Origin: a virus
Lineage: Duplodnaviria; Caudoviricetes
Strand: one strand, 5' to 3'
Virus record (IMG/VR): IMGVR_UViG_3300032272_000017
Coordinates: 1-54,042 of that record
DNA: 54,042 bases
In this document: positions 2,186 through 54,042 of the stretch, in pieces
How positions within the stretch are numbered: position 1 is the stretch's first letter
Layout: the number at the start of each line of letters is the position of its first letter
Program-made: the position numbers and the translations under genes
The notes under the pieces: generated by a model
Databases searched by the model: none
Seen by the model: only the letters and a program-made list of their open reading frames with translations
What the model was told of the DNA's origin: nothing

Positions 2186-2194
2186 GGATAAATT

Positions 2195-3285: not shown

Positions 3286-3401
3286 CGAACCCCAGAAGAG
3301 CTCGTCACAGCAAAAAAGACTTCCTTGCCCTAGGGTAATAATGCCTAAGATGACCGAACAGACGGACGGTGGGATGACAAGGGTGCTGCTCTTCATTTTA
3401 T

Positions 3402-3797: not shown

Positions 3798-3798
3798 T
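3769..3798 (+). promoter_or_regulatory. sigma70-like promoter TTGAAC-18-TATAAT; probable leaderless transcript for the SspA-like gene; contains an inverted CAGCCC box
   Basis: Perfect TATAAT at 3793-3798, ATG 7 nt downstream at 3806, no SD. Confidence 0.6.
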
Positions 3799-3805
3799 AG
3801 CCCCT

Positions 3806-4530: not shown

Positions 4531-4542
4531 CCTGGAGGTAGA

Positions 4543-4731
4543 GTGAAATTTGAAAAGTACGAGGTGATCCCACTCAAGGATCATGCCAATCCGGTGCAAT
4601 GCGAAACACGCAACGCGCAGTTTTGGGGTCTGTACGGAATCGACAAGAACGACGATGCATATGCGGTCGGTGATTTCAGTTCCAAGACAGACGCAGAGTT
4701 CATAAAAGACGCTATTCAAGCGTCACCTTAA
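4543..4731 (+). CDS. hypothetical protein
   Basis: GGAGG RBS then GTG start; 62 aa. Confidence 0.7.
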   Translation: MKFEKYEVIPLKDHANPVQCETRNAQFWGLYGIDKNDDAYAVGDFSSKTDAEFIKDAIQASP

Positions 4732-4757
4732 CCGACTCCCCCCTGTCGGTATGCTTG

Positions 4758-4781
4758 GGCCCCCTTGTGGGGCCTTTTTTT
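4758..4781 (+). terminator. intrinsic terminator
   Basis: GGCCCC-cttgt-GGGGCC followed by T7. Confidence 0.85.
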
Positions 4782-4796
4782 ATTGGAGCGATATGT

Positions 4797-5402
4797 ATGG
4801 ATGTACTTGTAGGATGCGAGTACTCAGGAATCGTGAGAGATGCTTTTCTCGATGCTGGGCACTATGCGCTGTCGTGCGATATTTTACCGACAGAGAGCGA
4901 TAAGGGTGACCACTGGCACGGAGATATATTCGAGTGCTTGCGGAATACAGATTCATGGGATCTGATAATTCTGCACCCGCCATGTACACACCTCTGCGTT
5001 AGCGGAAACAGGTGGTACGGCAAAGGGCAAGAAGGTCACGATAAGAGACTGAAAGCGATTGAGTGGACCAAACAGCTATATAGAGCTGCAACACAGAAGG
5101 CAGTCCACGTCGCAATAGAAAACCCAGTAGGAGTGCTGTCGTCAGAATGGCGACCACCAGAACAATATGTGCAGCCATGGCAATACGGTATTCAGGAAAT
5201 GAAGAAGACCGGCTTGTGGCTGACACCCGGGCTACCGTTATTACAGCCCACTAGAATCATCACGCCGCCAAAACCGGATGATCCGGATTATTTAGCGTGG
5301 CAGAGGGTGTGGAGAATGCCCCCGGGACCAAATCGGGGCAAAGAGCGATCGCGATTCTTTCCCGGAATTGCGAAGGCAATGGCGGAGCAGTGGTCGTGGT
5401 AG
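4797..5402 (+). CDS. DNA cytosine-methyltransferase-like protein (short phage type)
   Basis: VLVGCEYSG, WDLIILHPPC (catalytic PC), IENP, QPWQYG, KKTGLW, RSRFFPGIAKAMAEQW; start moved to ATG 4797 after GGAG. Confidence 0.8.
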   Translation: MDVLVGCEYSGIVRDAFLDAGHYALSCDILPTESDKGDHWHGDIFECLRNTDSWDLIILHPPCTHLCVSGNRWYGKGQEGHDKRLKAIEWTKQLYRAATQKAVHVAIENPVGVLSSEWRPPEQYVQPWQYGIQEMKKTGLWLTPGLPLLQPTRIITPPKPDDPDYLAWQRVWRMPPGPNRGKERSRFFPGIAKAMAEQWSW

Positions 5403-6100
5403 TTTACGAGGGACCGTCGGAATTGAATGGTGCGCCTATCGTTGCCATTGTAACGGGGTTGGTTACCCCTTCGACAAACCGCAAGACTGGACCAATGGCT
5501 CAGCTGTGGATCCTCGATGCGACCACTGAGCCGCACGTTGCTGTTAAGACAGGTGAGGATGAGTCAGTATGTGGCGACTGTCCAGCTCGTAACAAATGGT
5601 GTTACGTGACTACCTTCCAAGGGCCACTCTCAATATATAGGACATGGAAACGTGGAGGATACCAAAGATATGTTCCCGAAGATGAGCAATCATTACTCGA
5701 TGGCACGGTTCTCAGATTCGGTGCCTACGGAGATCCAGCTGCAGTCCCTATTGAAGTCATTCGAGGCATCGGTAGGCGAGTACGTCGTTTTACTGGTTAC
5801 ACCCACGCCTGGAAGTACTGCGATAGCGAATTTCGACACTACTGTATGGCCAGCGTGGATACGATCAGCGATCAGCAACAAGCTGCTCGAAGCGGGTGGC
5901 GTACGTTCAGAGTGGCCTCTCCAGATTCTCCAAAACGAAAAGGGGAATCCATATGTCCTGCCAGTGAAGAAGCAGGACATAAAATCAACTGCTACGACTG
6001 CGGAGCCTGCGACGGAAGGCGACGACCCAAAGTAAAATCACACATAGTTATTCAGGCGCACGGCGCCAAAACAAAGCGATACTTGGAAGAGTTCGCATAA
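5396..6100 (+). CDS. Cys-rich conserved phage protein, possibly Fe-S/radical-SAM-like
   Basis: NRKTG, CGDCP....CY, LRFGAYGDP, TGYTH, CPA...C..CGAC; start moved to GTG 5396 behind GGAG. Confidence 0.6.
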   Translation: MVVYEGPSELNGAPIVAIVTGLVTPSTNRKTGPMAQLWILDATTEPHVAVKTGEDESVCGDCPARNKWCYVTTFQGPLSIYRTWKRGGYQRYVPEDEQSLLDGTVLRFGAYGDPAAVPIEVIRGIGRRVRRFTGYTHAWKYCDSEFRHYCMASVDTISDQQQAARSGWRTFRVASPDSPKRKGESICPASEEAGHKINCYDCGACDGRRRPKVKSHIVIQAHGAKTKRYLEEFA

Positions 6101-6111
6101 GGAGAAGTATC

Positions 6112-7086
6112 ATGGCACATGAAATTGATTTCAGCACAGGGCAAGCTGCGATTGCCTACACCGGCCGCGTCCCATGGCATGGGTACGGCGAGCCAATGCA
6201 AGACAACCTACCACTCGAAGTGTGGCGCCAGATGGCCGGCCTTGATTGGGAAGTGGAAGAGAAGCCTGTCTTTTACAAGACAGACGACTTGGGACAGGCA
6301 TACCTGTCAGCGATCCCCAAGAAGAAGGTGTTGGTCCGTAGTGACAATTCACAGCCCCTTTCTGTAGTCTCTGACCGCTACAAGGTTGTCCAACCGAAGG
6401 AAGTCCTCGACTTCTTTGAGTCCGTGATCAAAGAGAACGGGTTCAAGATGTCCACAGCTGGTGCTCTCAGAGATGGCAAACGAGTTTGGGCCATGGCTGA
6501 CACCGGCGAAGGCTTCCAGATCGAGAACGGTGACCGAGTAGGAGCGCATCTTCTACTAGCAACCAGCTACGACGGTACGTTCGCTACGACTGCTCAGTTC
6601 ACGTCGATCAGGGTCGTCTGCAACAACACACTCGGCTTCAGTCTGAACCGCGGTGGTGAAGGCGGCATCGTACGCATCCCGCATACGTCTGACTTCAACC
6701 AGTGGGATATCAAAGCCGATCTTGGATTCGATTCCAGCTGGAGCAACTTCAAGAAGAACATCTTCGAGCTGTCTCAGCACAAAGTCACTAAGCGCGAAGC
6801 ACTGAATTACTTCTTGACAGTGATGGGAGTCACCGAGGAAGAAGCTGCAGACGGTAAGCAGTTGTCCAACGTGAAGAAGTTGATCAGTCTCTACGAATCA
6901 GGACCAGGTTCTAAGTTACCAAGCTCACAGAACACTCTGTGGGGAGCTTTGAACGCGGTAACCTTCATGGTAGATCACTGTCGTGCTGCAAAGAACACGG
7001 GCAACCGGTTCGATTCAGCATCGTTCGGAGGCGGCGCCAACTTGAAGCGTGAAGCATTCAAGGAAGCTGTCCGGATTGCAGCATAA
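6112..7086 (+). CDS. DUF932 family protein
   Basis: MAHE, PWHGYG, AGLDWEV, VVSDRYKVVQ, TSYDG, RVVCNNT, TLWGALNAVT. Confidence 0.9.
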   Translation: MAHEIDFSTGQAAIAYTGRVPWHGYGEPMQDNLPLEVWRQMAGLDWEVEEKPVFYKTDDLGQAYLSAIPKKKVLVRSDNSQPLSVVSDRYKVVQPKEVLDFFESVIKENGFKMSTAGALRDGKRVWAMADTGEGFQIENGDRVGAHLLLATSYDGTFATTAQFTSIRVVCNNTLGFSLNRGGEGGIVRIPHTSDFNQWDIKADLGFDSSWSNFKKNIFELSQHKVTKREALNYFLTVMGVTEEEAADGKQLSNVKKLISLYESGPGSKLPSSQNTLWGALNAVTFMVDHCRAAKNTGNRFDSASFGGGANLKREAFKEAVRIAA

Positions 7087-7262
7087 TGTCTATCCCAGTC
7101 GACAGCTACGAATGCCGGCGCTGTAAGGAGTGGTCGCATTACGAGGCAAGGGAGAGTCTACGAAGACTTCCCGAATACTGTCCGTACTGCGGCGACCGCC
7201 AACTTCGTTGGAAGACGGATCAAAATTGGGAACTACAGGAGAAGCTCGATGGGAGCACATAG
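7086..7262 (+). CDS. 58-aa Zn-ribbon protein (YECRRC ... CPYCG), not in ORF track
   Basis: ATG overlaps the DUF932 stop (TAATG); MSIPVDSYECRRCKEWSHYEARESLRRLPEYCPYCGDRQLRWKTDQNWELQEKLDGST. Confidence 0.75.
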   Translation: MSIPVDSYECRRCKEWSHYEARESLRRLPEYCPYCGDRQLRWKTDQNWELQEKLDGST

Positions 7263-7548
7263 TTTTACAGCAAGTGTCTACGCACCGACAGCCGCAGACG
7301 GGTACAGTATGCTCGTCGACGAAGCTGTCTATGACCACGGTCACGACCCGTACAACGGTACGATCAGCACAACGAGCGGGTTCAAGATAGTTCCGTTCAT
7401 GGAAGGAGAATCCTCCGAACAGTGGTCGGAACGAGTGCTGGACATAACTGAGAAGCGGGGAAGCTGTGCCTGTATCGAGGCGACTCACGTCGAGAAGAAC
7501 GACGAGGGGTGGCCACTCTGGCACTTCGCGGGATGGGCAGCATCATGA
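7249..7548 (+). CDS. hypothetical phage protein (YDHGHDPYNGTIST motif)
   Basis: AGGAG RBS; ORF track. Confidence 0.8.
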   Translation: MGAHSFTASVYAPTAADGYSMLVDEAVYDHGHDPYNGTISTTSGFKIVPFMEGESSEQWSERVLDITEKRGSCACIEATHVEKNDEGWPLWHFAGWAAS

Positions 7549-7928
7549 TTCACATGTCAGCATACAGATTACTCCGCGTGAAGAACGGGCAACCACACAC
7601 GCTTTTCCACGGTCATAATGGTAGCCGGAAGCTGCCGCAGGATACTCTCCTAGAAGCCGTAGAGAAGCAGGTGTGGAACCCCGGGAAGAAGGGCAAGTCA
7701 CCCGGGTTCACGTCCGGGTGGCATGTTCTCCCCACAAAGGAGCAATGCGTTAAGTACCTAGAACGGTTCACTGCGAAGGACGACATCGTCGTCTGTCGTG
7801 TGACCATAGCGGAGCCTCGCTACAAGCCGCGTTCGAAAGTGTTTTTAACAAAATACATGAAGATCGACGCGGTTGATTGGGCAATAGCATTGGAGGAACA
7901 TGGCCATGTCCCAACCAACACGTTTTGA
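7545..7928 (+). CDS. hypothetical protein
   Basis: ATGA overlap with the upstream gene; TLFHGHNGSRKLP. Confidence 0.75.
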   Translation: MIHMSAYRLLRVKNGQPHTLFHGHNGSRKLPQDTLLEAVEKQVWNPGKKGKSPGFTSGWHVLPTKEQCVKYLERFTAKDDIVVCRVTIAEPRYKPRSKVFLTKYMKIDAVDWAIALEEHGHVPTNTF

Positions 7929-8157
7929 AGTACAAGAGTACACCGTCGTCGATGGCTGGATAAACAACTGGTCGGTGGAGATTCCCATTCATATTGACGA
8001 GTGGGTCACGAGGCCGCAGACGTACGCGACCGCGGACGAAGCACAGGCAGCAATCTATGAGTTCTTCGCTGACCTGACACGAGCCGGTATGGTGCAGTCA
8101 TACGACATGTCAGATTATCGGGTCGTTCCCATTGCATATGGGGCTGCAAACAAGTAA
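7906..8157 (+). CDS. hypothetical protein
   Basis: GGAGG RBS 9 nt upstream of ATG 7906. Confidence 0.75.
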   Translation: MSQPTRFEVQEYTVVDGWINNWSVEIPIHIDEWVTRPQTYATADEAQAAIYEFFADLTRAGMVQSYDMSDYRVVPIAYGAANK

Positions 8158-8257
8158 AATCGTTACAAATCAACGAGTCTCCCGGGTAGGGTTTTTTCAT
8201 TCTCCTTTCACCTACACGGTTGTCCACCACCGGGAGGCTCACCTTTTAGGAATAGCT

Positions 8258-8518
8258 ATGAGAGAACTGTTGGATAAGATTCGCGAAGAAGAAGCAGCAA
8301 ACAACGGTGGATCTACAAATTATTACGAGTTGCCGGAAGGCGCCTCGGAATTACAGGACTTGATCGAGTACAAAAATATGAACTTTGCTGTTGCAAATAT
8401 CTTCAAAGCTGCGTATAGATTAGGTTCTAAAGGTAATACAACGCCCGAATATGATCTCAACAAGATCATATGGTTTGCAGAAAGAGAGAAGGCCAGGATA
8501 CTTAATGAAAAGATTTAA
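8258..8518 (+). CDS. DUF3310-like protein (T7 gp1.7 nucleotide-kinase-like family)
   Basis: GGSTNYY, NFAVANIFKAAYRLGSK, DLNKIIWF. Confidence 0.7.
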   Translation: MRELLDKIREEEAANNGGSTNYYELPEGASELQDLIEYKNMNFAVANIFKAAYRLGSKGNTTPEYDLNKIIWFAEREKARILNEKI

Positions 8519-8717
8519 GATCACATTGATGGTTCCACACTCTACGGAGATCGTCGTTGCCTCTATGCAGGAAGCGCATAACGAAGCAACACGACTCGCT
8601 GGTGGAGACGTTGCTGATGGACCGAAGGCAATGGTCCACTCGGTAGAAGAGATCGGAGACATCCAAACAGATCCAATCCCATTCGGTGACCCAGAGATAG
8701 AATTTCCACCAGAATAA
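8505..8717 (+). CDS. hypothetical protein
   Basis: ATG 8505 after AGGA; overlaps the upstream gene end. Confidence 0.65.
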   Translation: MKRFKITLMVPHSTEIVVASMQEAHNEATRLAGGDVADGPKAMVHSVEEIGDIQTDPIPFGDPEIEFPPE

Positions 8718-8782
8718 ACTATACATAATCTGGTATACTCTTTTCTTTATTCACAACATAAGCCCGTGGGCAGGAGTTTAGA

Positions 8783-9121
8783 ATGTTTGTAGGACAAGAC
8801 GGATTACCCAAGACCAAACTGAAGTGGACAGCGCCAACGCTCAACACAGATGGCTCTGCGATCACTCAGTCTCTGACGTATACTTTGTACCGCTGGGTGA
8901 ATGGCGCACCTTTCGCAGTCCTCTCGTTCCCCGGAACGCTTAATCCCGACGGGCAGTACGAGTTCTTGCTAGAAGACATTGCCTCATTCAACACAGACGG
9001 TGTGTATACGTTGAGCCTCACAGCTTCAGATGAAGATGGCGACGAATCAGACCACTCGAACACCATCGAGGTCACAAGAGCAATGGCCCCTTTGGCACCA
9101 ACAGGGTTTGGCTTGGAATAG
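8783..9121 (+). CDS. stand-alone fibronectin type III domain protein
   Basis: LKWTAP..NTDGS, YTLY, GVYTLSLTASDEDGDESDHSN, APLAPTG; AGGAG RBS. Confidence 0.75.
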   Translation: MFVGQDGLPKTKLKWTAPTLNTDGSAITQSLTYTLYRWVNGAPFAVLSFPGTLNPDGQYEFLLEDIASFNTDGVYTLSLTASDEDGDESDHSNTIEVTRAMAPLAPTGFGLE

Positions 9122-9161
9122 CCGCCCTACTTTTTTTAATTTTACTATGGAGCCCGTGGGC

Positions 9162-9410
9162 ATGAGTTACATTACATTCGACTATCAGTGCAGCAACTGC
9201 GATAAAGCAGCCCCCAACATGATGGTCCGCCGCAGCGAGATGAACAACGTAGAATGCGACGAGTGTGGTGCGCTAATGAAACGGATGCCCGCGGCGCCTA
9301 TCACTACGTTCAAGTTTGGTGATAGGTCAGCACAAAAAGGTCGGAAACAAGTCAGCCTGCGCGACCCCAATCCTGGGGCCGGCAAGTTCAGCGACACGAA
9401 AGATATCTAG
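9162..9410 (+). CDS. FmdB-like Zn-ribbon protein
   Basis: FDYQCSNC ... VECDECG.LMKR..AAP. Confidence 0.75.
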   Translation: MSYITFDYQCSNCDKAAPNMMVRRSEMNNVECDECGALMKRMPAAPITTFKFGDRSAQKGRKQVSLRDPNPGAGKFSDTKDI

Positions 9411-43311: not shown

Positions 43312-45063
43312 TTACGCCGCCATATGAGGTTTTTTACCGGACTTGCCACCAGTGACATATCCCGCGAGTTTTTGCTTCCACGACTTCGTTTGTTTCTCGG
43401 CTTTGGGTCTCCCCTCACCTACGTAAGCAGCGTCAGCAATCATCTTGCCAATCCATGCGGCGGCGTCCACACGGTCGTCTTTTACACCGGATGGGAAGCG
43501 AAGCAACTCGTTCATTGCGTCGTCAACCCACAGGGCTCCTTCCGGCCACCAAACTTGGCCTAGGGACATCAAGCCCTGAATCGTCCTTGCTCTCAACTCC
43601 TTGTCTTGTTTACCCGGGGGTAACTCTTCGACATGAAGGTCATACAGTCCTTCCTCACGGATTCTACGTTGGAGGAACTGGTCTAGTGTAAGCGAAATCT
43701 GTCCTTTTTCCAACCCGAACTTGCGCGGGTGCCACTTTCGGTGTATGGAGAAGATCGTCTCGATGATTTCCATAGCGTCCCATCGGCCGCGGTACTCGTC
43801 GAGAAAGTAGATCTGCCCGTCTTGATCTTTGCCTACAACGTAGAAGACAGACCAATCTGCGTGTTCTTTCTTGGAGATCGCGAGATCGCCGGCGCAGTAG
43901 ATGTCGAGGAAGTCAGGTTTGGTTTTCCAGAACTTGAAGTACTTCTTCTGGAAGTACGCGCCTTCTTCGACCTGTGGATTCTGTTGATACAGCGCAGCCC
44001 AATCTCGGGGAGCTAGCGTTCTCTTGATCTTGCGGAGTGCTTTTAGGTCATAGCGTTCCGGATGAAGTGCTTCACCGCGAGAACGATACTTCTCGTCTTG
44101 CACTGCCATCGCAGGAAAGTCAACAATACGCCACCGATCCGCGTCTTCGGGCCATTCCCCATCATCAGAGTCCCGCATCTCTTTTTCGGCTTCACGCATG
44201 CCGGACAATAGATGTCCTGCAAGATCGTCGTCGTGCCATCGGGTTTGAATGACCACGATACCCGCACCAGGAGCAAGCCGGGTATAAGCTGTGGAAGAGT
44301 ACCAAGATTTGGCGGTCTCTCGGATGGTTGCAGATTCTGCTTCATCGCGGTTTTTAACAGGGTCGTCAATAAGGAAGATGTGAGCTCCCCGTCCTGTAAT
44401 CGGTCCTCCAACACCAGCAGCCAATATCCCACCGCCTGTTCGTCTATCTTTCTCAAAGTCATACAAACTCCATCGCTCAACGGCTTCGTTCTTCTTGGTG
44501 ACGCCGAGGTTGCCGAAAAGATGGTGGTAGTCCTCACTCTTTACCAATTCTTGGATCTTGCGTGAGAAGTCCATCTGCAGCGACTGTGCGTACGACGTGT
44601 TAATGAATTCGTGGTTGGGGTAATTCCCCAAATGCCATGCCGGCCAGTACTGTGACGCCAACATGGACTTGCCATGCCGTGGCGGCATGGTAATCATCAA
44701 GCGAGGCGCCTCTTTTCGGGCAACCTGCTCCGAGAAGTGCATAAGCTCGGCGGCGATCACCTTGTGAACCCAGCCTGCATGGTACTCATGCTCATACCGC
44801 ATCACGAACGCCAGCAGGTTACGCTTGGCAAGCTCGCGTCGGTACAGTTCTTGGGTGGCTTGTGCTTGTCGGGTAAGTTCTTTGGTCTTGAGAACCTTCG
44901 GCGCAGCTTTTTTCTGTGCCTTCGACCTTTTCTTGGAGATTTTCTTCTTTTTAGCGACCTTTTTCTTCTGTTGCGAGGCGCGCAACAGGGCTTCGCCCTC
45001 GGCTGCAGCGCAGTCGTCACATTTCACGCCATCTTTGCACTTATCGCAGTCGTTTTTTGTCAT
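43312..45063 (-). CDS. terL: terminase large subunit
   Basis: MPPRHGKS Walker A, GPITGRGA, IDDPVK, QTRWHDDDL, ALYQQNP, DLAIS, FPSGVKDDRVDA. Confidence 0.95.
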   Translation of the reverse strand: MTKNDCDKCKDGVKCDDCAAAEGEALLRASQQKKKVAKKKKISKKRSKAQKKAAPKVLKTKELTRQAQATQELYRRELAKRNLLAFVMRYEHEYHAGWVHKVIAAELMHFSEQVARKEAPRLMITMPPRHGKSMLASQYWPAWHLGNYPNHEFINTSYAQSLQMDFSRKIQELVKSEDYHHLFGNLGVTKKNEAVERWSLYDFEKDRRTGGGILAAGVGGPITGRGAHIFLIDDPVKNRDEAESATIRETAKSWYSSTAYTRLAPGAGIVVIQTRWHDDDLAGHLLSGMREAEKEMRDSDDGEWPEDADRWRIVDFPAMAVQDEKYRSRGEALHPERYDLKALRKIKRTLAPRDWAALYQQNPQVEEGAYFQKKYFKFWKTKPDFLDIYCAGDLAISKKEHADWSVFYVVGKDQDGQIYFLDEYRGRWDAMEIIETIFSIHRKWHPRKFGLEKGQISLTLDQFLQRRIREEGLYDLHVEELPPGKQDKELRARTIQGLMSLGQVWWPEGALWVDDAMNELLRFPSGVKDDRVDAAAWIGKMIADAAYVGEGRPKAEKQTKSWKQKLAGYVTGGKSGKKPHMAA

Positions 45064-46611: not shown

Positions 46612-46911
46612 TTATTTACCGGCTTTCTGATACGTTATTGCTTCCGTCGCGTCTCGACGTATCTGTGCAGCTGGTGAGTACTCACGCCACAGTTCGAGTA
46701 GTAGGTTCATTGGGTGCTGATCCGCAGCATACGCAAAGAACATCTTCGCTGTGTGACCCTGCATCTGAAACGGCCAGATCTTATAGACGTAGTCGCCTGC
46801 TGCGAGCATGTCGCCCTCAGACTCTGGAACGATGCGGACGTTGCCCGCTTCCGGACCACCCACGAACAGTATTTTGTTACCGTTCCTTATGTTTTTCGTG
46901 TTCTCAGCCAT
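46612..46911 (-). CDS. hypothetical protein (FVGGP motif)
   Basis: ORF track; RBS. Confidence 0.7.
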   Translation of the reverse strand: MAENTKNIRNGNKILFVGGPEAGNVRIVPESEGDMLAAGDYVYKIWPFQMQGHTAKMFFAYAADQHPMNLLLELWREYSPAAQIRRDATEAITYQKAGK

Positions 46912-46920
46912 TAGCCCTTC

Positions 46921-47136
46921 CTATAGAACAGGGTCTTCATCAAATAACGCCTCTATGTAATCGTGAGGAATGATATTTTCCGGGTCTGCGTCGTGGTATG
47001 CACCCATCAACTCCATCAGCGAGTCGCCTTCGAAGTCGATGCTCTGGTACATGAACCTCAGGAATTGTAACTCAGTCACTAAGTCACTAGATAACGCAGT
47101 CAGGAGGAGGTCGTCCGTTTTATTCGGCTTCGACAT
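46921..47136 (-). CDS. acidic hypothetical protein
   Basis: GGAG RBS before ATG 47136. Confidence 0.65.
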   Translation of the reverse strand: MSKPNKTDDLLLTALSSDLVTELQFLRFMYQSIDFEGDSLMELMGAYHDADPENIIPHDYIEALFDEDPVL

Positions 47137-47311
47137 ACTGACACTCCGTCTGCAGTGCAACCAGCTTGCCGAAGCCAGTGCTGTCTGGACGTGCCCAAGT
47201 CGCGTGAATCTGGTCCTCGGCTTGGTGACACTGTTCTAACGTGTCGAAGTCACTTTGTGACTCAGTGACTCCGTTCGAAGTGACTAAGTAAACGTATAAG
47301 ATCCATTTCAT
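47120..47311 (-). CDS. 63-aa hypothetical protein (MKWILYVYLV ... FDTLEQC)
   Basis: GGAGG RBS; internal ATG of ORF 47120..47503. Confidence 0.7.
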   Translation of the reverse strand: MKWILYVYLVTSNGVTESQSDFDTLEQCHQAEDQIHATWARPDSTGFGKLVALQTECQYVEAE

Positions 47312-47448
47312 GTTCTTCCTCCAATCTGTGGCATCAGCCACCCTTTGTGTACCCATCGCAGTCGTAGGCCGGGGCCTTTCATCAGCCACATCACCCGACA
47401 GCGTCCATCGGGGTGTGGGGGGTTGATCCTCGTTGTTAATGCTTTCAT
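47308..47448 (-). CDS. 46-aa hypothetical protein, first gene of the leftward arm, not in ORF track
   Basis: AAGGAG RBS; ends with an ATGA overlap on the next gene. Confidence 0.6.
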   Translation of the reverse strand: MKALTTRINPPHPDGRCRVMWLMKGPGLRLRWVHKGWLMPQIGGRT

Positions 47449-47474
47449 ATGATAGCTCCTTTTCGTACTGAGCT

Positions 47475-47550
47475 ATAGTACGACTATATGAGCTATGAAA
47501 CAAGCTTTCTTAGTGAATTTTGCTAAAAAATAATTTTTCAAAATAATATA
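47475..47550 (-). promoter_or_regulatory. leftward sigma70-like promoter TTGTTT-17-TACTAT with AT-rich UP region
   Basis: -10 at 47475-47480, -35 at 47498-47503, A/T tracts upstream; GAGCTAT repeated three times nearby. Confidence 0.55.
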
Positions 47551-47594
47551 GACAGTCAGGGGGTTGGGTAGGTACTAAGTGACTCCGTCACCAA

Positions 47595-47705
47595 GTCACT
47601 CAGTGATTAAATTCAACGCTACCCTGTCAGATCTTCAAACCGTCTCACGATCAAGGAACCTTCCTAGTCTGACAGATTGATGGTACGCGTTGATCACTGA
47701 GTGAC
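47595..47705. repeat. large imperfect inverted repeat (~37-nt arms)
   Basis: GTCACTCAGTGAT..TCAACGC.TACC.CTGTCAGA versus TCTGACAG..GGTA.GCGTTGA.TCACTGAGTGAC. Confidence 0.75.
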
Positions 47706-47806
47706 GCAGTGACTAAGTGACGTAGTTACGCAGTTACTTAGTAGCTGACCCTGCGCACTGCAGGACAGCACAATAAAATCCACGCTCAATACATTACCAA
47801 TTATCA

Positions 47807-47866
47807 ATCGAGGTCTGACGACCTCGGTGCCCAGTGAGAGTATACCTTTCATAGTTATCACTGGAG
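47807..47866 (+). repeat. early leader module copy 1 (partial hairpin, expanded second stem)
   Basis: ATCGAGGTC-TGAC-GACCTCGGTGCCC, then CCAGTGA...TCACTGG-AG. Confidence 0.7.
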
Positions 47867-47873
47867 ATCCATC

Positions 47874-48116
47874 ATGTTAAACGTACTTAAGAACGCACTG
47901 ATCTACACCGGCTTTTACTTTCTTATTACCACTATCGTCTTCTGGACGATCTTCTTCGTACACGTAGCTGTTCTCGTGTTCTGGAAGCCTATGCTGGTTA
48001 TCTTCGCCATCCTGGTCCTAATCTTCACTTGGGACATGCTGGCCGCTAAGAAGGTGTTCAACCTTCCAGACGGTTCTGAACTTTATGCTCGCATCAAGGC
48101 AGAACGCAACATCTAA
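47874..48116 (+). CDS. early membrane protein (two TM)
   Basis: GGAG RBS; hydrophobic. Confidence 0.75.
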   Translation: MLNVLKNALIYTGFYFLITTIVFWTIFFVHVAVLVFWKPMLVIFAILVLIFTWDMLAAKKVFNLPDGSELYARIKAERNI

Positions 48117-48120
48117 CCTA

Positions 48121-48146
48121 AAGGGGCCTCGTGCCCCTTTTCGTTT
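48121..48146 (+). terminator. possible intrinsic terminator
   Basis: AAGGGGC-ctcgt-GCCCCTT followed by TTCGTTT. Confidence 0.55.
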
Positions 48147-48175
48147 GTCATATCATTCACCACCGGAGAATCCGC

Positions 48176-48457
48176 ATGACTATTCATCACTATCGGCTCA
48201 TCAAAACCGACGACATCCTCAGCGGCCCTGTAGATTACAGCACCCCTGTGGGCAACACTGCAGTTTTCATCTGCAGCAAAACAGTTCGCAGCGCTATCGA
48301 ATCTTCTAAGCCGAAGACGAAGAAGTTCACTGCTAACCTCAAACACAACCGAAAGTGGCTGGACAAATTCAACACTTTCACCGACGCAAATCCCGACTTC
48401 GTCGTTTACAAGAAAGCAAAATCCGGCATGTGGTACGCACAAGCCGTGTTCCTGTAA
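48176..48457 (+). CDS. basic hypothetical early protein
   Basis: GGAG RBS; internal ATG of ORF 48131..48457. Confidence 0.75.
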   Translation: MTIHHYRLIKTDDILSGPVDYSTPVGNTAVFICSKTVRSAIESSKPKTKKFTANLKHNRKWLDKFNTFTDANPDFVVYKKAKSGMWYAQAVFL

Positions 48458-48492
48458 ACGCTCGAAAAGAGCGTCACAAAAATCTCGACTTT

Positions 48493-48547
48493 GGGTATCA
48501 AGATCTTACGATCTTGGTGCCCTATTCGAGTGAACAATCAAAAGGAG
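48493..48547 (+). repeat. early leader module copy 2
   Basis: GGGTATCAAGATC-TTAC-GATCTTGGTGCCC ... GTGAACAATCA-AAAGGAG. Confidence 0.9.
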
Positions 48548-48553
48548 CATCTC

Positions 48554-48757
48554 GTGTTCATTTTAACAACAACGCAACAACTGCCCGGACTCTTCGGCCT
48601 CGTGTGGTACACACGACAAGTAGAGCTGGGCACTTTCGAAACCTGGAACGACGCAGTCGGCTACGCCTTCAATGTCTGCAAGTTCCAACACGACTACGAA
48701 TTCACTGTTACTCATAAGCAAGGAGAACCATCGTGCCAAACGTACGCTTCGCAGTAA
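48554..48757 (+). CDS. hypothetical early protein
   Basis: GTG 6 nt after the module SD. Confidence 0.65.
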   Translation: MFILTTTQQLPGLFGLVWYTRQVELGTFETWNDAVGYAFNVCKFQHDYEFTVTHKQGEPSCQTYASQ

Positions 48758-48894
48758 TCGACCTTGACTCTAACGAGCCAATGGTCGCCTTCGACTCTAT
48801 CGACGACGCCGAAGAATGTCGTCAAGAGTTCTCTCAACAAGATATCGCCACTATCGTCGACACAATCGATGATAGCCTGGGATATCGGCTCTAA
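48733..48894 (+). CDS. 53-aa acidic early protein, not in ORF track
   Basis: AAGGAG RBS plus GTG; MPNVRFAVIDLDSNEPMVAFDSIDDAEECRQEFSQQDIATIVDTIDDSLGYRL. Confidence 0.7.
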   Translation: MPNVRFAVIDLDSNEPMVAFDSIDDAEECRQEFSQQDIATIVDTIDDSLGYRL

Positions 48895-48903
48895 CCAACC
48901 ACG

Positions 48904-48958
48904 GGGTATCAAGGTCTTACGACCTTGGTGCCCTGTAGTTGTGAACAATCACAAGGAG
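48904..48958 (+). repeat. early leader module copy 3
   Basis: GGGTATCAAGGTC-TTAC-GACCTTGGTGCCC ... TTGTGAACAATCACAAGGAG. Confidence 0.9.
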
Positions 48959-48980
48959 AAACACCATCGCAAACCGTAAC

Positions 48981-49364
48981 GTGGAGACGTACTCAAAAGC
49001 TGACTTCCCTCACATGATCGGCGACGATCCCGTGAGTGACCTCAAGGTCATGCAGTCAGCTGCCGGCTACTACATCGGTCGCTCCTACTTCGATACCGAA
49101 TACGGCTTCGAAGGTCCTTACTCTCGCGAGTCAGGCTACATGACCCAGGCCGAGGCCGAGATGTCACTTGCCAGCAACTTCCCAGTTCGCGATTGCATCG
49201 AGAACAACGCCCTCTACGAGTCTGGCGAACTACCTCATCCTCATCAGACTGATGACGACGAGGAACGCAACCTCGCCCAAGAAGAGTTTCATGCTTGGCA
49301 GCAAGCCAGCATTGAGGAAGAGGAAGCTCAATACGACTCAGAGTGGGGCGACATCCCGTTTTAG
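48981..49364 (+). CDS. acidic early protein (SAAGYYIG..PYSRES) with SSB-like C-terminus DIPF
   Basis: ORF track; true start may be the in-frame ATC at 48966. Confidence 0.8.
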   Translation: METYSKADFPHMIGDDPVSDLKVMQSAAGYYIGRSYFDTEYGFEGPYSRESGYMTQAEAEMSLASNFPVRDCIENNALYESGELPHPHQTDDDEERNLAQEEFHAWQQASIEEEEAQYDSEWGDIPF

Positions 49365-49373
49365 TCATCACAC

Positions 49374-49427
49374 AGGTATCCGGGGCTCACGCCCCGGGTG
49401 CCTATTTCGCGTGAACAATCACAGGAG
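49374..49427 (+). repeat. early leader module copy 4
   Basis: AGGTATCCGGGGC-TCAC-GCCCCGGGTGCCT ... GTGAACAATCACAGGAG. Confidence 0.9.
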
Positions 49428-49435
49428 TAAACATT

Positions 49436-49729
49436 ATGGACATGGTTCTTCAGGGCTTTTTCGCAGCTGCAACTGTTCTTTACCTTTGCAGCTACATCGG
49501 CTTTCGCCGCATCTTCGCATACGCGTTCATCCTGGACCTCGCCGTTACCGGTGGGTTCATCTACATGTTCGCCGGCAGCTACGCTGGCATGATGACTGGC
49601 GTCATCGCCGGCTTGATCTTCTCTGCCACCCTGCGCATCGGTCGTCGCCTCTTCGGCGTCGAACGCGTGCGCTTCATCCGCGGCTACGGTCGCATACTCC
49701 CAACCATGTGTTGGGTACGGAGCAAGTAA
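49436..49729 (+). CDS. early membrane protein (3 TM)
   Basis: MFAGSYAGMMTGVIAGL; module SD. Confidence 0.8.
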   Translation: MDMVLQGFFAAATVLYLCSYIGFRRIFAYAFILDLAVTGGFIYMFAGSYAGMMTGVIAGLIFSATLRIGRRLFGVERVRFIRGYGRILPTMCWVRSK

Positions 49730-49872
49730 TGGACATCGACGAAACTCGTTGGTTAATGCACCACTTCGAGCCTGACGAGCTCGAACGACAGAGCATCAAC
49801 ACCACCATCGAGGTCTTGAAGACCTCGTTCGTGGTACTGCTCGCTTTCATCATCATCCCCCTTGCAGCATAA
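49729..49872 (+). CDS. 47-aa protein with C-terminal TM
   Basis: TAATG overlap with the upstream stop. Confidence 0.6.
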   Translation: MDIDETRWLMHHFEPDELERQSINTTIEVLKTSFVVLLAFIIIPLAA

Positions 49873-49882
49873 GGAGCATCAC

Positions 49883-50194
49883 ATGCGTTATGCAATCTAC
49901 AACTTTGCAACTGGTGAGCGCACCGAAGAGATGGCTCGTTCCATCATCGAGGTCGTTCTCAACCCTGACACGCAGTGCCGCGTTACACAGGCAAGCACAG
50001 TCATGGACGAACGCCATCTCGGCACCGAATGGCAGTGTGACCACTGCTTGCCACCCGAGGAGTGCGTGCATTGCAACCCTGCATTCCGCTATGCGGAAAT
50101 GGAGACTTGCGACACATGCTGCCCGTACCCACACGAGGGTACGACATGGCATGTCAATGGCGTCTGCGCCAAGTGTGGCACTTCCGACTACTAG
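49883..50194 (+). CDS. Cys/His-rich Zn-binding early protein
   Basis: AAGGAG RBS; CDHC, CVHC, CDTC, CAKC. Confidence 0.75.
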   Translation: MRYAIYNFATGERTEEMARSIIEVVLNPDTQCRVTQASTVMDERHLGTEWQCDHCLPPEECVHCNPAFRYAEMETCDTCCPYPHEGTTWHVNGVCAKCGTSDY

Positions 50195-50200
50195 CAACAT

Positions 50201-50258
50201 GGGTATCACGGTCTCACGACCGTGGTGCCCTGCTTTTGTGGACAATCACCAACTGGAG
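50201..50258 (+). repeat. early leader module copy 5
   Basis: GGGTATCACGGTC-TCAC-GACCGTGGTGCCC ... GTGGACAATCAC...GGAG. Confidence 0.9.
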
Positions 50259-50264
50259 TATGTT

Positions 50265-50564
50265 ATGAACCATTACAAAGTCACGTTACGCGTCGAGCGT
50301 TACAAGATTCTCGTCATCAAGCTCATTCGCGCTATCAACCTTTGGGGTCTCAAAGAGTCCAAAGACTTCGTTGAGCGCGAGTTCACGTTCGATACGTACA
50401 TGACAGACCACGCGGTCTTCAACGTCACGGTCAACGTCGAGCAGCTTGGGCGTATCGCTCACTTCGTCACCAACGACAACCGAGCCTGGATCACGCACTC
50501 AGAGCTGCTGTATCCAGAGGACGTTGACGTCTTTGACTTCACTGATGCCCCTCAAGGGCATTAG
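50265..50564 (+). CDS. ribosomal protein bL12 (L7/L12) C-terminal-domain-like protein
   Basis: YKVTL....YKILVIKLIRAINLWGLKESKDFVE versus the L7/L12 motif [24 protein letters not shown]. Confidence 0.7.
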   Translation: MNHYKVTLRVERYKILVIKLIRAINLWGLKESKDFVEREFTFDTYMTDHAVFNVTVNVEQLGRIAHFVTNDNRAWITHSELLYPEDVDVFDFTDAPQGH

Positions 50565-50571
50565 CCGCATT

Positions 50572-50626
50572 GGGTATCAAGGTTTCACAACCTTGGTGCC
50601 CATTTTGCGTGAACAATCACAAGGAG
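50572..50626 (+). repeat. early leader module copy 6
   Basis: GGGTATCAAGGTT-TCAC-AACCTTGGTGCCC ... GTGAACAATCACAAGGAG. Confidence 0.9.
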
Positions 50627-50632
50627 AAAGAT

Positions 50633-50986
50633 ATGCGTTTGATTATAGCTGGTGGCCGTGACTTCACGGACATCAAACTTATGACAGCCAAGCTGGATGT
50701 CCTGCTCAGTAAGACTGATGATGATCCGATAACAATCATCAGTGGTACTGCCCGTGGCGCCGACCAGACTGGTGAGGTCTATGCACGCATCAGGAACTTG
50801 GCCGTTGAGCACTACCCCGCTCAGTGGAACAAGTATGGTAAGAGCGCGGGCTACAAGCGCAACGCTCTGATGGCTGACACAGCCACTCACTGTGTGGTGT
50901 TCTGGGACGGTCAGTCCAAGGGCTCCAAACACATGATCGATCTAGCTCAAGCAAAAGGCTTAGAGCTGCGGATCGTGAGGTACTGA
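50633..50986 (+). CDS. DUF2493 / YspA-like SLOG-family protein
   Basis: MRLIIAGGRDF, IISGTARGAD, YGKSAGYKRN..MA, FWDGQSKGSKHMI. Confidence 0.88.
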   Translation: MRLIIAGGRDFTDIKLMTAKLDVLLSKTDDDPITIISGTARGADQTGEVYARIRNLAVEHYPAQWNKYGKSAGYKRNALMADTATHCVVFWDGQSKGSKHMIDLAQAKGLELRIVRY

Positions 50987-50987
50987 T

Positions 50988-51296
50988 ATGTACGACATCA
51001 AAGTCGTTAATAAGAGGTGGAGCCTGGAACATGGCGGCGAGTACGTTGGTCGTCCGTCAGTTCTTGGCAACCCATTCGCCATCGGCAGAGATGGTACTCG
51101 CGAGGAAGTCATCGCGAAGTACCGCCGGTGGCTCTGGGAACAAGTCCAGCAAGCTGGACCCGTGCTGTGGGAGCTTGATCGGCTGGCCGAGAAGCTCGTT
51201 ACACAGCGTGGTCTTACCTTGGTGTGCTGGTGCGCACCCAAGGCTTGTCATGCAGATGTCATTGCATCTGCCATTGAATGGAGGAACTCACCATGA
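50988..51296 (+). CDS. DUF4326 domain protein
   Basis: YVGRPSVLGNPF..G.DGTREEVIAKY, LVCWCAPKACHADV. Confidence 0.9.
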   Translation: MYDIKVVNKRWSLEHGGEYVGRPSVLGNPFAIGRDGTREEVIAKYRRWLWEQVQQAGPVLWELDRLAEKLVTQRGLTLVCWCAPKACHADVIASAIEWRNSP

Positions 51297-51562
51297 GTTT
51301 TAGATGGTTAACAAGTAAAGATAACCGTGACCTCGGTGTATGGCTCGATCGCGATAGAGACGGTGAGGTCAAGCCTACCGGCTTTATAGTTGATCGGATC
51401 TCTACACTGGAGATCGACGACATGATGCCTGACTTTGAGGTCAAGGTCGCTTCAGATACTCCCTATGGGCGTGCCTTGTATCAGGAGTTGCTTCCTTTGA
51501 AGCAATCCAAAGATACAACACATGTCCCATGCAACTGTGACAACTGTGAGAGGTACTGGTAA
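51293..51562 (+). CDS. hypothetical protein with C-terminal HxxCxCxxC
   Basis: GGAGG RBS, ATGA overlap. Confidence 0.7.
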   Translation: MSFRWLTSKDNRDLGVWLDRDRDGEVKPTGFIVDRISTLEIDDMMPDFEVKVASDTPYGRALYQELLPLKQSKDTTHVPCNCDNCERYW

Positions 51563-51798
51563 TGGTAGAAGAAAACACCTTGGGCTCGTTAGTCGAAGAG
51601 TCCCGCATCGAAGAGCGTGAATTGCTCATCGAGCTTAGCGAGATGTCAGACTCGCAACTGTCCTACGCTCTAGAGCGTGAACAGGTCATGTACGACTCAT
51701 TGTGTAGTGATTACTGCACAGCAGGTGAGACGTACCAGCCGGCAGAATCTCGCCGGCTTTGGATGATGCAGAAGTGCGTCATGATGCGCTTGCGTTAA
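51562..51798 (+). CDS. hypothetical protein
   Basis: TAATG overlap. Confidence 0.7.
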   Translation: MVEENTLGSLVEESRIEERELLIELSEMSDSQLSYALEREQVMYDSLCSDYCTAGETYQPAESRRLWMMQKCVMMRLR

Positions 51799-51805
51799 GT
51801 GCAAA

Positions 51806-51860
51806 GGGTATCGAGGTCTTACGACCTCGGTGCCCGCTTCGCGTGAACAATCACAAGGAG
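51806..51860 (+). repeat. early leader module copy 7
   Basis: GGGTATCGAGGTC-TTAC-GACCTCGGTGCCC ... GTGAACAATCACAAGGAG. Confidence 0.9.
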
Positions 51861-51866
51861 AACGTC

Positions 51867-51992
51867 ATGTTGGAACTGTTAGGTTTAATGCTGTGGTACA
51901 TCTTGTGCTACATCGCAGGTTACATGCTGGGCTTGGCTCTCGCCGAATGGATCACCCGAACATACCCAGAAGGTATCTTCAGTGACCTGTAG
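51867..51992 (+). CDS. 41-aa single-TM peptide
   Basis: ATG 6 nt after the module SD. Confidence 0.65.
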   Translation: MLELLGLMLWYILCYIAGYMLGLALAEWITRTYPEGIFSDL

Positions 51993-52071
51993 TAAGGGGT
52001 GTTCATTCCCCCAATGTTACATCCCATGTGCTAAGGGTTGTCCTAAGCACACCAACGACAAGGAGAATGTC

Positions 52072-52557
52072 GTGTTAAAGAACGAAAGTAAGTTAACCAA
52101 ATGGAGCCTGGGTATCCTTGCGATCATCCTTACGCTCTACTTCATGGAGCCGGCTCGCGCTGAGACTACCGTGGACGCGATTGTAGATAACTACATCGCC
52201 GACACGTCTGGTTTCGGGTTTTTGGTCGTTGGTGCTGGCCTTGAGAACTATGTCTACGCATACGCGTATGCGATAGCCAATGCGAAGTATGAGGCTGGTT
52301 TGTTGGACAACGTGGACGACCTCGCAACTACGACTTTCAATCTCAGTAAGTATTTGCTGACGTGTGATGCCATAGAAGGCTCACGCGGAGAAGTTGTGAG
52401 ACGTTGGGTGTTGTACGCCAATGACTTGGAAGACACGTCTACTATGACATACACCACTGGCATCATGCACTTCATGACTCACCAGTGTGGTGACGAACTA
52501 GACGCAGTTGCTAATTGGATATTCTCGGACACAACGACAGGAGGTGAAACGTCATAG
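52072..52557 (+). CDS. exported protein with signal peptide (PARA|E)
   Basis: AAGGAG RBS plus GTG; basic N-terminus, hydrophobic core, AxA cleavage site. Confidence 0.75.
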   Translation: MLKNESKLTKWSLGILAIILTLYFMEPARAETTVDAIVDNYIADTSGFGFLVVGAGLENYVYAYAYAIANAKYEAGLLDNVDDLATTTFNLSKYLLTCDAIEGSRGEVVRRWVLYANDLEDTSTMTYTTGIMHFMTHQCGDELDAVANWIFSDTTTGGETS

Positions 52558-52564
52558 GTAAACA

Positions 52565-52621
52565 CGAGCCGGGTCTTACGACCCGGGTGCTCGGAGAAAT
52601 TGGAGTCATCACCAGAAGGAG
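52565..52621 (+). repeat. early leader module copy 8 (degenerate)
   Basis: CCGGGTC-TTAC-GACCCGGGTGCTC ... ATCAC..AAGGAG. Confidence 0.65.
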
Positions 52622-52627
52622 TAACGT

Positions 52628-53002
52628 ATGGCTTTAAGAACTGTGTCGGTTGATACCGGCACGCCTGCACAAGTGCATGCTCGGCAAGCAGAAATGGATC
52701 GGCATTGGCAATCGTTTGCTAATCCGTTGGACATTCTGATTCGCTGGGAAGAACGTGCATACGTAGTGTTCAACCTCACGAACTACGACGATCCAATAGT
52801 GGATCGCGAGTTCATTAATAGTTACATTAACCGCCGAATAGGAGATACACATGAGCGGATTCAACGAAAATTCAGGAATGGTCGAGCAACTTCAGGGTCA
52901 CGGCGAAATTCCTGCCGCACCAGCGCAGCCGCTGGCAACTCAAACACCAACGCAACCAAGTGTGCAGTCTGGCACAACGGGGCTCGCGTGGTGGGACGCT
53001 AA
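52628..53002 (+). CDS. hypothetical protein
   Basis: Strong AAGGAG RBS, but a 152-nt overlap with the next gene. Confidence 0.55.
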   Translation: MALRTVSVDTGTPAQVHARQAEMDRHWQSFANPLDILIRWEERAYVVFNLTNYDDPIVDREFINSYINRRIGDTHERIQRKFRNGRATSGSRRNSCRTSAAAGNSNTNATKCAVWHNGARVVGR

Positions 53003-53624
53003 CAAGTACTACTGGCGCAAATCTGCCAACGGTGGTACGCACCTGGCTCCGCAGGACTCGTTCGTAGAAGATGTACTTGATCGTACCGATCATTACATGA
53101 CTACGATCGCTAAGAGTCTTAGCGAAGACGAGTACGGTGAGTTCCAAGCAACCGCTGATCTGCGCAAGCAGATGATCGAGAGCGAGGACGCATTCGATAC
53201 ATCTGGTGTCGAGGGCAACTCAATCCGTCGAGAGGTCTTGAATCGACTGATCATTGCTCGTAAGATATGCGGCGCATCAGCTGTCTCAGCTGAACACCGC
53301 GTTACCAACGAGCTCAGTCGTGAGACTGGGGATGTCGAGAAACTGATCGGAGACTCCGAAGGGTTCTACGCTTCAGATATCGAGAAGCGTGAACGCTGGG
53401 GACAAAAGGCAGTACGCCTTGAGTTCATCGCCAAGGCAGTCGCCGACGGTGAGGTCATCCCGACCGACGAGAAAGCGTTCTCGGAACTGCTCGCCAACCG
53501 TATCAAGCGCAGCTTGTACGACGATGCAGTGGAACGCGGCAACAAGCTGAAGCGCCCAGCGCAGCAGCAAGCCACGTCCAGCAAGAAACCTTCTCGCGAA
53601 GAGTTACTTGCACTGACCGCTTAG
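52851..53624 (+). CDS. hypothetical protein
   Basis: AGGAG RBS; 257 aa. Confidence 0.8.
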   Translation: MSGFNENSGMVEQLQGHGEIPAAPAQPLATQTPTQPSVQSGTTGLAWWDANKYYWRKSANGGTHLAPQDSFVEDVLDRTDHYMTTIAKSLSEDEYGEFQATADLRKQMIESEDAFDTSGVEGNSIRREVLNRLIIARKICGASAVSAEHRVTNELSRETGDVEKLIGDSEGFYASDIEKRERWGQKAVRLEFIAKAVADGEVIPTDEKAFSELLANRIKRSLYDDAVERGNKLKRPAQQQATSSKKPSREELLALTA

Positions 53625-53745
53625 GTCTTCTGGTAGCGACGACGCGGATCCACCTTACGCGAAAGTCGCTCGTTCGTGAGGGTCAGGCCAAGTGCCTGGC
53701 CCTCGCATTTAGAATCACCCTCACTACGTGGGCATAGGACATCAT

Positions 53746-54042
53746 ATGGAAAATCTCTTTATCGATTACGAGACATTTTGGGACGTGGGCTTCAGCCTGC
53801 GCTCTCCGAAGATCTCAACCACTGACTATATCCATGACAAGCGCTTCGCTGTACATGGTGCCAGCGTGGCATTCGATGACGATAAGCCGGAGTGGCTGGA
53901 GCATGGAGAACTACATGACATGTTCAAGGAACTGCGCAAGCAAGAGCAAGAAGTAAGACTCGTGGGCCACCACACACTATTCGATGGCTACATAACCAAA
54001 CACATATACAATTATGAGGCCGACGAGTACTTCTGCACGATG
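53746..54042 (+). CDS. DNA polymerase (family A), N-terminal 3'-5' exonuclease domain, 3'-truncated
   Basis: MENLFIDYETFW (Exo I DxE), TTDYIHDKRF, VGHHTLFDG (Exo II-like); open to the window end; not in ORF track. Confidence 0.8.
   Translation, partial: MENLFIDYETFWDVGFSLRSPKISTTDYIHDKRFAVHGASVAFDDDKPEWLEHGELHDMFKELRKQEQEVRLVGHHTLFDGYITKHIYNYEADEYFCTM

Follow-up and report, generated by a model that had tools for sequence, protein, structure and literature searches.

The window analysed here is the whole of IMG/VR virus record IMGVR_UViG_3300032272_000017, a single linear contig of 54,042 bp that constitutes the entire assembly, with a CheckV completeness of about 70%. Among its early genes lie eight copies of a short intergenic module, a hairpin followed by a ribosome-binding site, and it is these modules that we describe (Table 1). 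Judged by its sequence, the phage is a podovirus-like, sediment-derived, distant relative of Pseudomonas phage KPP25. Among cultured phages, KPP25 and phiR18 of Pseudomonas come closest (portals about 37% identical). The source DNA was detected in sediment metagenomes, with no RNA run listed among its sources. All three phages have the same layout of divergent arms, and KPP25 has no annotated RNA polymerase in the 50 kb listed. In the window, structural and packaging genes run on the minus strand from 47503 down to 9407 and include, besides the large terminase (TerL), those for the portal, the major head protein and two internal virion proteins of 1683 and 2108 aa. The plus strand carries small early genes and then replication genes, from 47874 to the end of the window and again at 62–9410.

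The eight modules lie where the first-pass annotation had placed them, all on the plus strand, all intergenic, each with a Shine-Dalgarno (SD) sequence and a start codon 3′ of it. Modules 2 to 7 are full copies, with a 13-bp stem and the T-N-A-C loop described earlier (TTAC or TCAC); modules 1 and 8 are degenerate. The inner six stem pairs vary between the full copies, and their earlier reading proved accurate, as did that of the A-T outer pair in copy 4. Module 1 precedes the first early gene, and the same variant is present in L102, L110, L115 and L128. Module 8, whose hairpin has a 6–7-bp stem plus a bulged 4-bp extension, represents a 'last module' subtype that is kept in relatives. The ATG after module 4 starts a conserved 97-aa membrane protein, and that after module 6 an SLOG/YspA-like protein. 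After module 3 (48952–48983), ATC stands where other modules carry ATG, with an in-frame GTG 15 nt further 3′. At up to three mismatches, the pattern GGTGCC-N8-GTGAACAATCA occurs six times in the window against 0.12 expected, and none of 100 shuffles reaches six. Folding z-scores lie between −3.3 and −6.5 for copies 1–7, and the score is −1.1 for copy 8. A covariance model built from the eight copies (R1) retrieved no further plus-strand copy in the 54 kb. No Rfam family accounts for the element: none of 4227 models matches the window at its gathering threshold, and a permissive search of 47400–53800 gave best scores of at most 22 bits against thresholds of 37–181 bits.

Table 1. Positions in the window of the modules and of other features discussed in the text.
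Feature	Position	Strand	Details
Large terminase	43312–45063	−	Structural/packaging arm
Predicted sigma-70-type early promoter	47520..47547	+	TTGCTA-16-AATAAT; promoter scan
Structured leader	47559..47790	+	Promoter to module 1; 8-bp AGTGACNN-type repeats; folding
Module 1 (degenerate)	47795..47876	+	9-bp stem 47807–47828, TGAC loop, variant box, SD, ATG 47874
Canonical terminator-like hairpin (not a module)	48120..48147	+	8-bp stem then TTTTCGTTTG; 3′ of first early gene, inside cassette 1
Module 2	48485..48556	+	Upper stem 48493–48522, box 48530–48541, GTG start 48554
Module 3	48896..48983	+	Upper stem 48904–48933, box 48941–48952, SD; start ATC 48966 or GTG 48981
Module 4	49366..49438	+	Upper stem 49374–49403 (outer pair A-U), box 49411–49422, ATG 49436
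Module 5	50193..50267	+	Upper stem 50201–50230, box GTGGACAATCAC 50238–50249, ATG 50265
Module 6	50564..50635	+	Upper stem 50572–50601 (loop-closing pair U-A), box 50609–50620, ATG 50633
Module 7	51798..51869	+	Upper stem 51806–51835, box 51843–51854, ATG 51867
Module 8 (degenerate)	52555..52630	+	Bulged hairpin ~52566–52592, box GAGTCATCACC, SD, ATG 52628

Conserved copies of the module are found in metagenomic relatives. R1 detects 9–10 copies within 5.5 kb of a 56.9-kb relative whose TerL is 72% identical, and 6–7 copies in another (TerL 69%), at a position equivalent to the early region of the window. A scan of metagenome contigs with the 97-aa membrane protein yielded 33 loci with 95 model matches, of which 76 were distinct plus-strand modules. 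The module is absent from KPP25 and from relatives with TerL identity of 61% or less; KPP25 and L028 bear other repeats. In L028 (TerL 61%), four copies of a different 49-nt intergenic repeat occupy the equivalent region (3325–7320). An SD and ATG follow three of these copies, no copy folds into a stable hairpin, and the repeat could correspond to the modules in degenerate or replaced form. Searches elsewhere returned little. Early-region DNA compared with cultured phages gave no match in a near search and one 41-nt match in a distant search, and a single module used as query gave chance-level matches (E ≥2). Exact scans of viral contigs for GGTGCC-N8-GTGAACAATCA produced six single matches (L001–L006), none confirmed by the model, and those for the hairpin pattern recovered nothing beyond the G001 contig and two others, L098 and L099, neither of them confirmed by the model. 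No relatives were found with the 257-aa early protein as query.

Covariation is evident already within the window. In the eight-copy alignment, 7 of the 13 stem pairs change on both sides, 92.3% of the cells of the 13-bp helix pair (91.9% over all 17 pairs), and none of 500 shuffles matches the observed covariation. A second alignment, of 81 distinct rows, was drawn from the metagenome loci found via the 97-aa membrane protein; it includes a few weak antisense matches and excludes the window. Here changes on both sides are seen at 12 of the 13 upper-stem pairs, and pairing extends to 95.1% of cells, compared with 39–47% in slid controls; again no shuffle (0/500) attains the covariation score. 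Further counts refer to a set of 62 distinct modules with at least 12 of the 13 stem pairs. Their loops are always U-N-A-C (TTAC 28, TCAC 28, TGAC 5, TAAC 1), a type of tetraloop that Zhao and colleagues in 2012 reportedly assigned to a GNRA-like class of stable loops. G·U makes up 141 of the 806 stem pairs and is concentrated at positions 4 (54/62) and 6 (57/62); within the window, the two T·G positions are U·G in 6/8 and 7/8 copies. The earlier suggestion that these oppositions are wobbles in plus-strand RNA is borne out by their fixed positions. On the opposite strand they would be C·A mismatches, and antisense covariance-model scores are at most 23 bits against 52–84 bits in the sense direction, which places the selected structure in the sense RNA. 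Taken with the covariation, this makes it a well-supported conclusion that the modules are a selected, cis-acting plus-strand RNA device reused across the early region, as had been proposed.

The 13-bp hairpin is real, but the complete structure is larger and has two stems, of which the hairpin supplies only the upper one. A CA-rich stretch past the upstream stop codon pairs with a G/U-rich stretch 3′ of the hairpin, forming a lower stem and leaving an internal loop on the 3′ side. The full structure thus consists of a lower stem of 4–8 bp, a U-rich loop or bulge on the 3′ side, the 13-bp upper stem, often extended by 1–3 bp, and the tetraloop, for about 18–24 bp in total. At least four flank pairs are present in 56 of 60 modules, and examples of flank complementarity include CTCGA/TCGAG in module 2, CTAGCAA/TTGCTAG in L108 and CACCAC/GTGGTG in L112 and L132. 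The modules' own flanks contribute −7.41 kcal/mol, as compared with −5.15 ± 0.29 kcal/mol when 5′ flanks are swapped between modules (0/200 as low) and −5.05 ± 0.33 kcal/mol when flanks are shuffled; a flank duplex test gave −6.07 versus −5.01 ± 0.23 (0/500 as low). With the hairpin as the anchor of the alignment, the 5′ flank is rich in C and A and poor in G, U predominates at positions +1 to +4 past the stem, only G or U occurs at +8 to +11, and a G-free ...CAWUCAC follows. The upstream stop codon lies 6–9 nt ahead of the stem in 49/62 modules, and the start codon 29–48 nt past the hairpin in the 59/62 for which an SD and start were found. GTGA-N4-TCAC, previously described as a conserved inverted repeat, is confined to the window genome. 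Relatives retain GUG...CAC alone, and the GUG of this box is part of the lower stem.

The first-pass annotation did not recognize the element as a described motif. Its basal stem is nonetheless identical to one in phage T7, where the same layout of two stems and an internal loop is seen. Folding the intergenic regions of the T7 early operon, taken from the T7 record, revealed a hairpin ahead of gene 0.3 (868–885) that reads GGGUAUC-GCAA-GGUGCCC. The basal 7 bp, GGGUAUC/GGUGCCC, including both U·G wobbles, are the same in this hairpin and in the modules; 18 of the 62 modules carry this base exactly, and 0 matches to it are expected in a shuffled T7 stretch. With filters off, R1 run over T7 1–8200 gave a best match at 860–927 (14.4 bits, E 0.017), and 3108–3173, 6414–6477 and 5855–5935 are among the seven best of the 14 listed matches. 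These four are the intergenic hairpins ahead of genes 0.3, 1, 1.3 and 1.1, respectively. The T7 early hairpins other than that of gene 0.3, four in number, share a GUG(G/C)CC arm with wobbles and a U-rich 3′ loop (CCUUUAUGAU), and AUCAC follows in two of them.

The likeness also concerns arrangement. In both phages the elements are intercistronic, on the sense strand of one long early transcript, which in the window is suggested by the genes and the promoter scan, and one copy lies ahead of the first gene. In both, an irregular hairpin is built from an upper stem with U·G wobbles at its base, a U-rich internal loop on the 3′ side and a lower stem, and an A/U/C-rich ...AUCAC leader precedes the SD. 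The differences are of length, loop and number. The upper stem is 13 bp in the modules versus 9–12 bp in the T7 folds, the loop is always UNAC in the modules and GCAA or of another type in T7, and the modules have about 5 nt more spacing before the ...UCAC box. There are 8–10 modules in 5–6 kb and none elsewhere in the genome parts examined. The window phage, moreover, is not T7-like: no RNA polymerase was found in the parts examined, its gene arms are divergent and its portal is KPP25-like (37%).

How might such modules act? Substrates of E. coli RNase III usually cover two turns of helix, internal loops confine cutting to one strand, the 3′ hairpins left by the enzyme shield RNA from exonucleases, and a 34-nt hairpin is a minimal substrate, as stated in an excerpt of PMC1540722. 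The T7 early precursor, of about 7000 nt, contains five processing signals for RNase III, according to an excerpt of PMC3867540. A promoter scan of 46900–54042 found a single site, ahead of the early genes and outside every module. Since there is one promoter-like site ahead of these genes and none in the modules, we read the modules as probable T7-type processing signals for host RNase III that double as recombination linkers; we put the probability of this reading at roughly 0.6. Host RNA polymerase would initiate near the predicted promoter and read through the small early genes. The RNA of each module would fold into its two-part helix of about 18–24 bp, as folding and covariation indicate, and host RNase III would, by analogy with T7, cut once in the 3′-side loop, about 5 nt past GGUGCCC. 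A stable hairpin left on the 3′ end of the upstream message would block 3′ exonucleases, a standard G-poor leader and SD would open the downstream message, and expression of each cassette would not depend on its neighbours. As DNA, the modules, 60–70 bp long and the sole sequence common to unrelated cassettes, would provide homology for gene conversion and cassette exchange. The element is best filed as a variant, found in a new phage lineage, of the classic RNase III processing signals of the T7 type. What is new is the longer stem, the fixed UNAC loop, the high copy number and the apparent role as a joint between shuffled cassettes. Among the functions suggested at first pass, our analysis favours the T7-type processing site; a translational operator and an antitermination signal gained no evidence.

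Several points weigh against reading the modules as RNase III signals. The rules for RNase III are those of E. coli and may not fit the host of this phage. Only the gene 0.3 hairpin comes near significance with R1, the other T7 matches having E values of 0.86–4.9, and the gene 0.5 hairpin is not among the 14 listed matches. In the reciprocal test, the five T7 early hairpins served to build a covariance model (R2), which, run over the window with filters off, retrieved none of the eight modules. Its sole match was the terminator-like hairpin at 48113–48156 (E 5.8, non-significant); the 12 extra stem nucleotides of the modules may explain this failure. Dunn and Studier in 1983 reportedly identified the T7 hairpins as the RNase III sites R0.3, R0.5, R1, R1.1 and R1.3, with cuts after 890, 1468, 3138, 5887 and 6448. 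In the folded sequence each of these cuts falls 5 nt past the GCC(C) or GGCC arm, so the positions are at least self-consistent. Two T7 records have no annotated RNase III features, and no relevant paper turned up that names R0.3, R0.5 or R1.3. In 28 of the 62 modules, at least 5 of the 8 nt past the stem are T. Finally, genome-specific flavours of the basal stem could reflect co-evolution with a phage factor.

These last two points lead to other explanations. The hairpins could be weak intrinsic terminators or attenuators that grade the expression of the early operon, like the stem-loop half of the PeSL cassettes of T4-type phages. Each module does have a GC-rich hairpin followed by a U-rich stretch, as intrinsic terminators do; this lenient criterion (5 or more T among 8 nt) picks out 2 of the 8 window modules along with the 28 of 62 overall, and in L012 the place of the window's canonical terminator, behind the homologue of the first early gene, is taken by a module-like hairpin. 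In reporter assays, PeSL stem-loops act as transcription terminators, according to an excerpt of PMC2839356. Unlike the U tract of an intrinsic terminator, however, that of the modules is interrupted, with TTTT within 9 nt of the stem in only 13/62, and the sequence past it pairs with the 5′ flank, a conserved pairing that plays no part in termination. No promoter follows the modules, so eight serial terminators would starve the distal conserved genes. The window also uses a textbook terminator where one is apparently needed (48120–48147). The T7 hairpins, for their part, share a CCUUUAU tail, yet the excerpt of PMC3867540 gives the T7 early precursor its length of about 7000 nt. We therefore consider termination an unlikely role. 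It is slightly less likely still that the hairpin is a site for a phage-encoded RNA-binding protein or nuclease, be it a translational operator, an antitermination factor's site or a target of a Cas6-like enzyme, co-evolving with the basal stem. The basal stem does vary between genomes and is uniform within each (its flavours are GGGUAUC/GGUGCCC, GGAUGGCC/GGUUGUCC, GGGUAGCC/GGUUGCCC and GGCUAGYC/GGYUGGCC), the tetraloop and wobble positions are conserved, and most early proteins belong to no known family. Gene conversion between modules accounts equally well for the uniformity within genomes, and the hairpin ends 29–48 nt ahead of the start codon, overlapping neither SD nor start, unlike the usual operators. 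No RNase III or double-stranded RNA (dsRNA)-binding domain was detected in the parts of two genomes that were examined, with controls positive in 8 and 9 of 14 genomes, and the identity with the T7 hairpin points to a host enzyme common to both phages.

The least probable of the explanations considered is that the element acts at the DNA level only, as a recombination site, a miniature mobile element or an N4-like hairpin promoter for a virion RNA polymerase. Three observations would suit such a role: relatives carry the intervening cassettes in shuffled arrangements, the modules of any one genome are homogenised, and no function is assigned to the virion proteins of 2108 and 1683 aa. The fixed G·U wobbles and strand-specific conservation, by contrast, suit RNA and not a DNA palindrome. 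The large virion proteins gave no polymerase signal in Pfam and PDB sequence searches, with about 30% of the genome missing. PF00940 was unmatched in five records, a weak blank since the control was positive in 0/14 genomes. The early promoters of N4 have 5–7-bp stems and 3-nt loops and require a giant virion polymerase, and lambda boxB has a 5-bp stem and a pentaloop, with two nut sites per genome. Like the modules, both combine a small hairpin with a structured loop and a linear conserved box, in early transcripts or DNA, but neither fits a 13-bp stem with a tetraloop in 8–10 copies.

The earlier proposal that the modules provide homology for swapping cassettes is supported by comparison with relatives, whose early regions have only some gene families in common, in differing orders. 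One caveat is that gene calling there is noisy, with ORFs in wrong frames, so that the cassette map is used qualitatively only. The membrane-protein gene is preceded by 11 of the 62 modules. The upstream gene ends of those 11 belong to at least seven unrelated families, grouped by eye, and none clustered together. Between loci these 11 modules are 69.5% identical, whereas their identity to the remaining modules of the same locus is 81.8%; over the whole set of modules the corresponding values are 66.8% and 80.0%. Since modules are more alike within than between loci, gene conversion or recombination between the modules of one genome is indicated. Blocks of homology with several relatives start at module 8 (52569 or 52603) and at module 4. 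Compared with the near-identical L103, the window is without a 68-aa gene directly 3′ of module 3 (L103 1530–1790), and this indel is flanked by two AAGGAGAAMCAYCAT copies. The gene downstream of the indel has, in its L103 copy, the same ATC context as in the window. Contigs from four sediment DNA runs were also examined, and a joint of 49403 to 52603 occurs in three of the runs, with only 25 nt on one side. We rejected a deletion in the window phage as its source and read the joint as a relative's last module with a copy-4-like hairpin. Overall, sequence comparison supports a role for the modules as homology for cassette exchange.

A parallel exists in the PeSL cassettes of T4-type phages, which, as excerpts of PMC2839356 and PMC4122927 describe them, provide linker homology for gene insertion, deletion and replacement and flank small ORFan genes in a hyperplastic early region. 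The modules likewise are repeated cassettes at ORFan boundaries that mark the joints of indels and replacements. The excerpts also describe PeSLs as holding a strong sigma-70 promoter with an AT-rich upstream element and a terminator stem-loop. The modules differ in both respects: none of those in the window has a promoter-like site, a sigma-70 promoter inside the module having been rejected both by eye and by the promoter scan, and their hairpin resembles a processing signal.

A more far-reaching possibility, which we offer tentatively and rate well below the RNase III reading itself, is that the modules are portable 'insulator' cassettes, each combining a host-RNase-III signal with a standard leader and SD. 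T7-like phages and an unrelated podophage clade might have them in common through descent or transfer, with gene conversion keeping them uniform within each genome, so that an ORFan landing between two of them would gain a stable, translatable message of its own. On cleavage, the GUG box would switch partner, moving from the upstream CAC of the lower stem to the downstream CAC in a small hairpin at the 5′ end. This hairpin would shield the new 5′-monophosphate end from RNase E.

Other features of the early region are described here for completeness. The leader between promoter and module 1 forms an extended hairpin of about 230 nt (folding of 47550–47875 gives −118 kcal/mol, z −5.9) and includes a 37-nt inverted repeat with arms at 47574–47610 and 47690–47726. 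Its AGTGACNN-type 8-mers recur in the divergent minus-strand genes (47062–47100, 47244–47274). These leader repeats could be an operator array, an origin array or another dsRNA substrate. Relatives diverge directly past the hairpin at 48120–48147 (loose end 48147, run X2). The early protein encoded at 50265–50564 has a homologue in L018 and a weak match to the C-terminal domain of ribosomal L7/L12, whose E value of 2.4e-5 falls short of the Pfam cut-off. After the last module, the conserved ORFs 52628–53002 and 52851–53624 overlap by about 150 nt in different frames, and L017 has homologues of both. At 53676–53745, a GC-rich hairpin (GAGGGTCAGGCC...GGCCCTC) followed by TTTAGAAT lies just 5′ of a polymerase-like ORF at 53746, and contigs from runs X3 and X4 diverge beyond 53739; this may be the boundary of the early and replication modules. 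The exonuclease- or polymerase-like ORF itself (53746–54042 and 1–61) is truncated by the end of the window. Circular closure of the contig was considered and rejected: joining end to start yields no continuous polymerase frame, and since the ORF is left uncontinued, the contig is taken to be a fragment and not a permuted circle.

The RNase III sites of T7 are a textbook case, usually treated as a peculiarity of T7-like phages. Here, the same basal helix, wobbles included, is reused 8–10 times per genome in an uncultured lineage with no RNA polymerase gene found in the parts examined. This leaves two possibilities: spread of the signal from one phage family to another, or a very narrow optimum set by RNase III. 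The modules also link RNA processing to genome plasticity, as they join shuffled early cassettes in the way that PeSLs do in T4-type phages; the modules would act post-transcriptionally, whereas PeSLs act through promoters. With at least 60 natural variants, they form a ready mutational series for the recognition rules of RNase III, and they are candidate insulator parts for synthetic operons.

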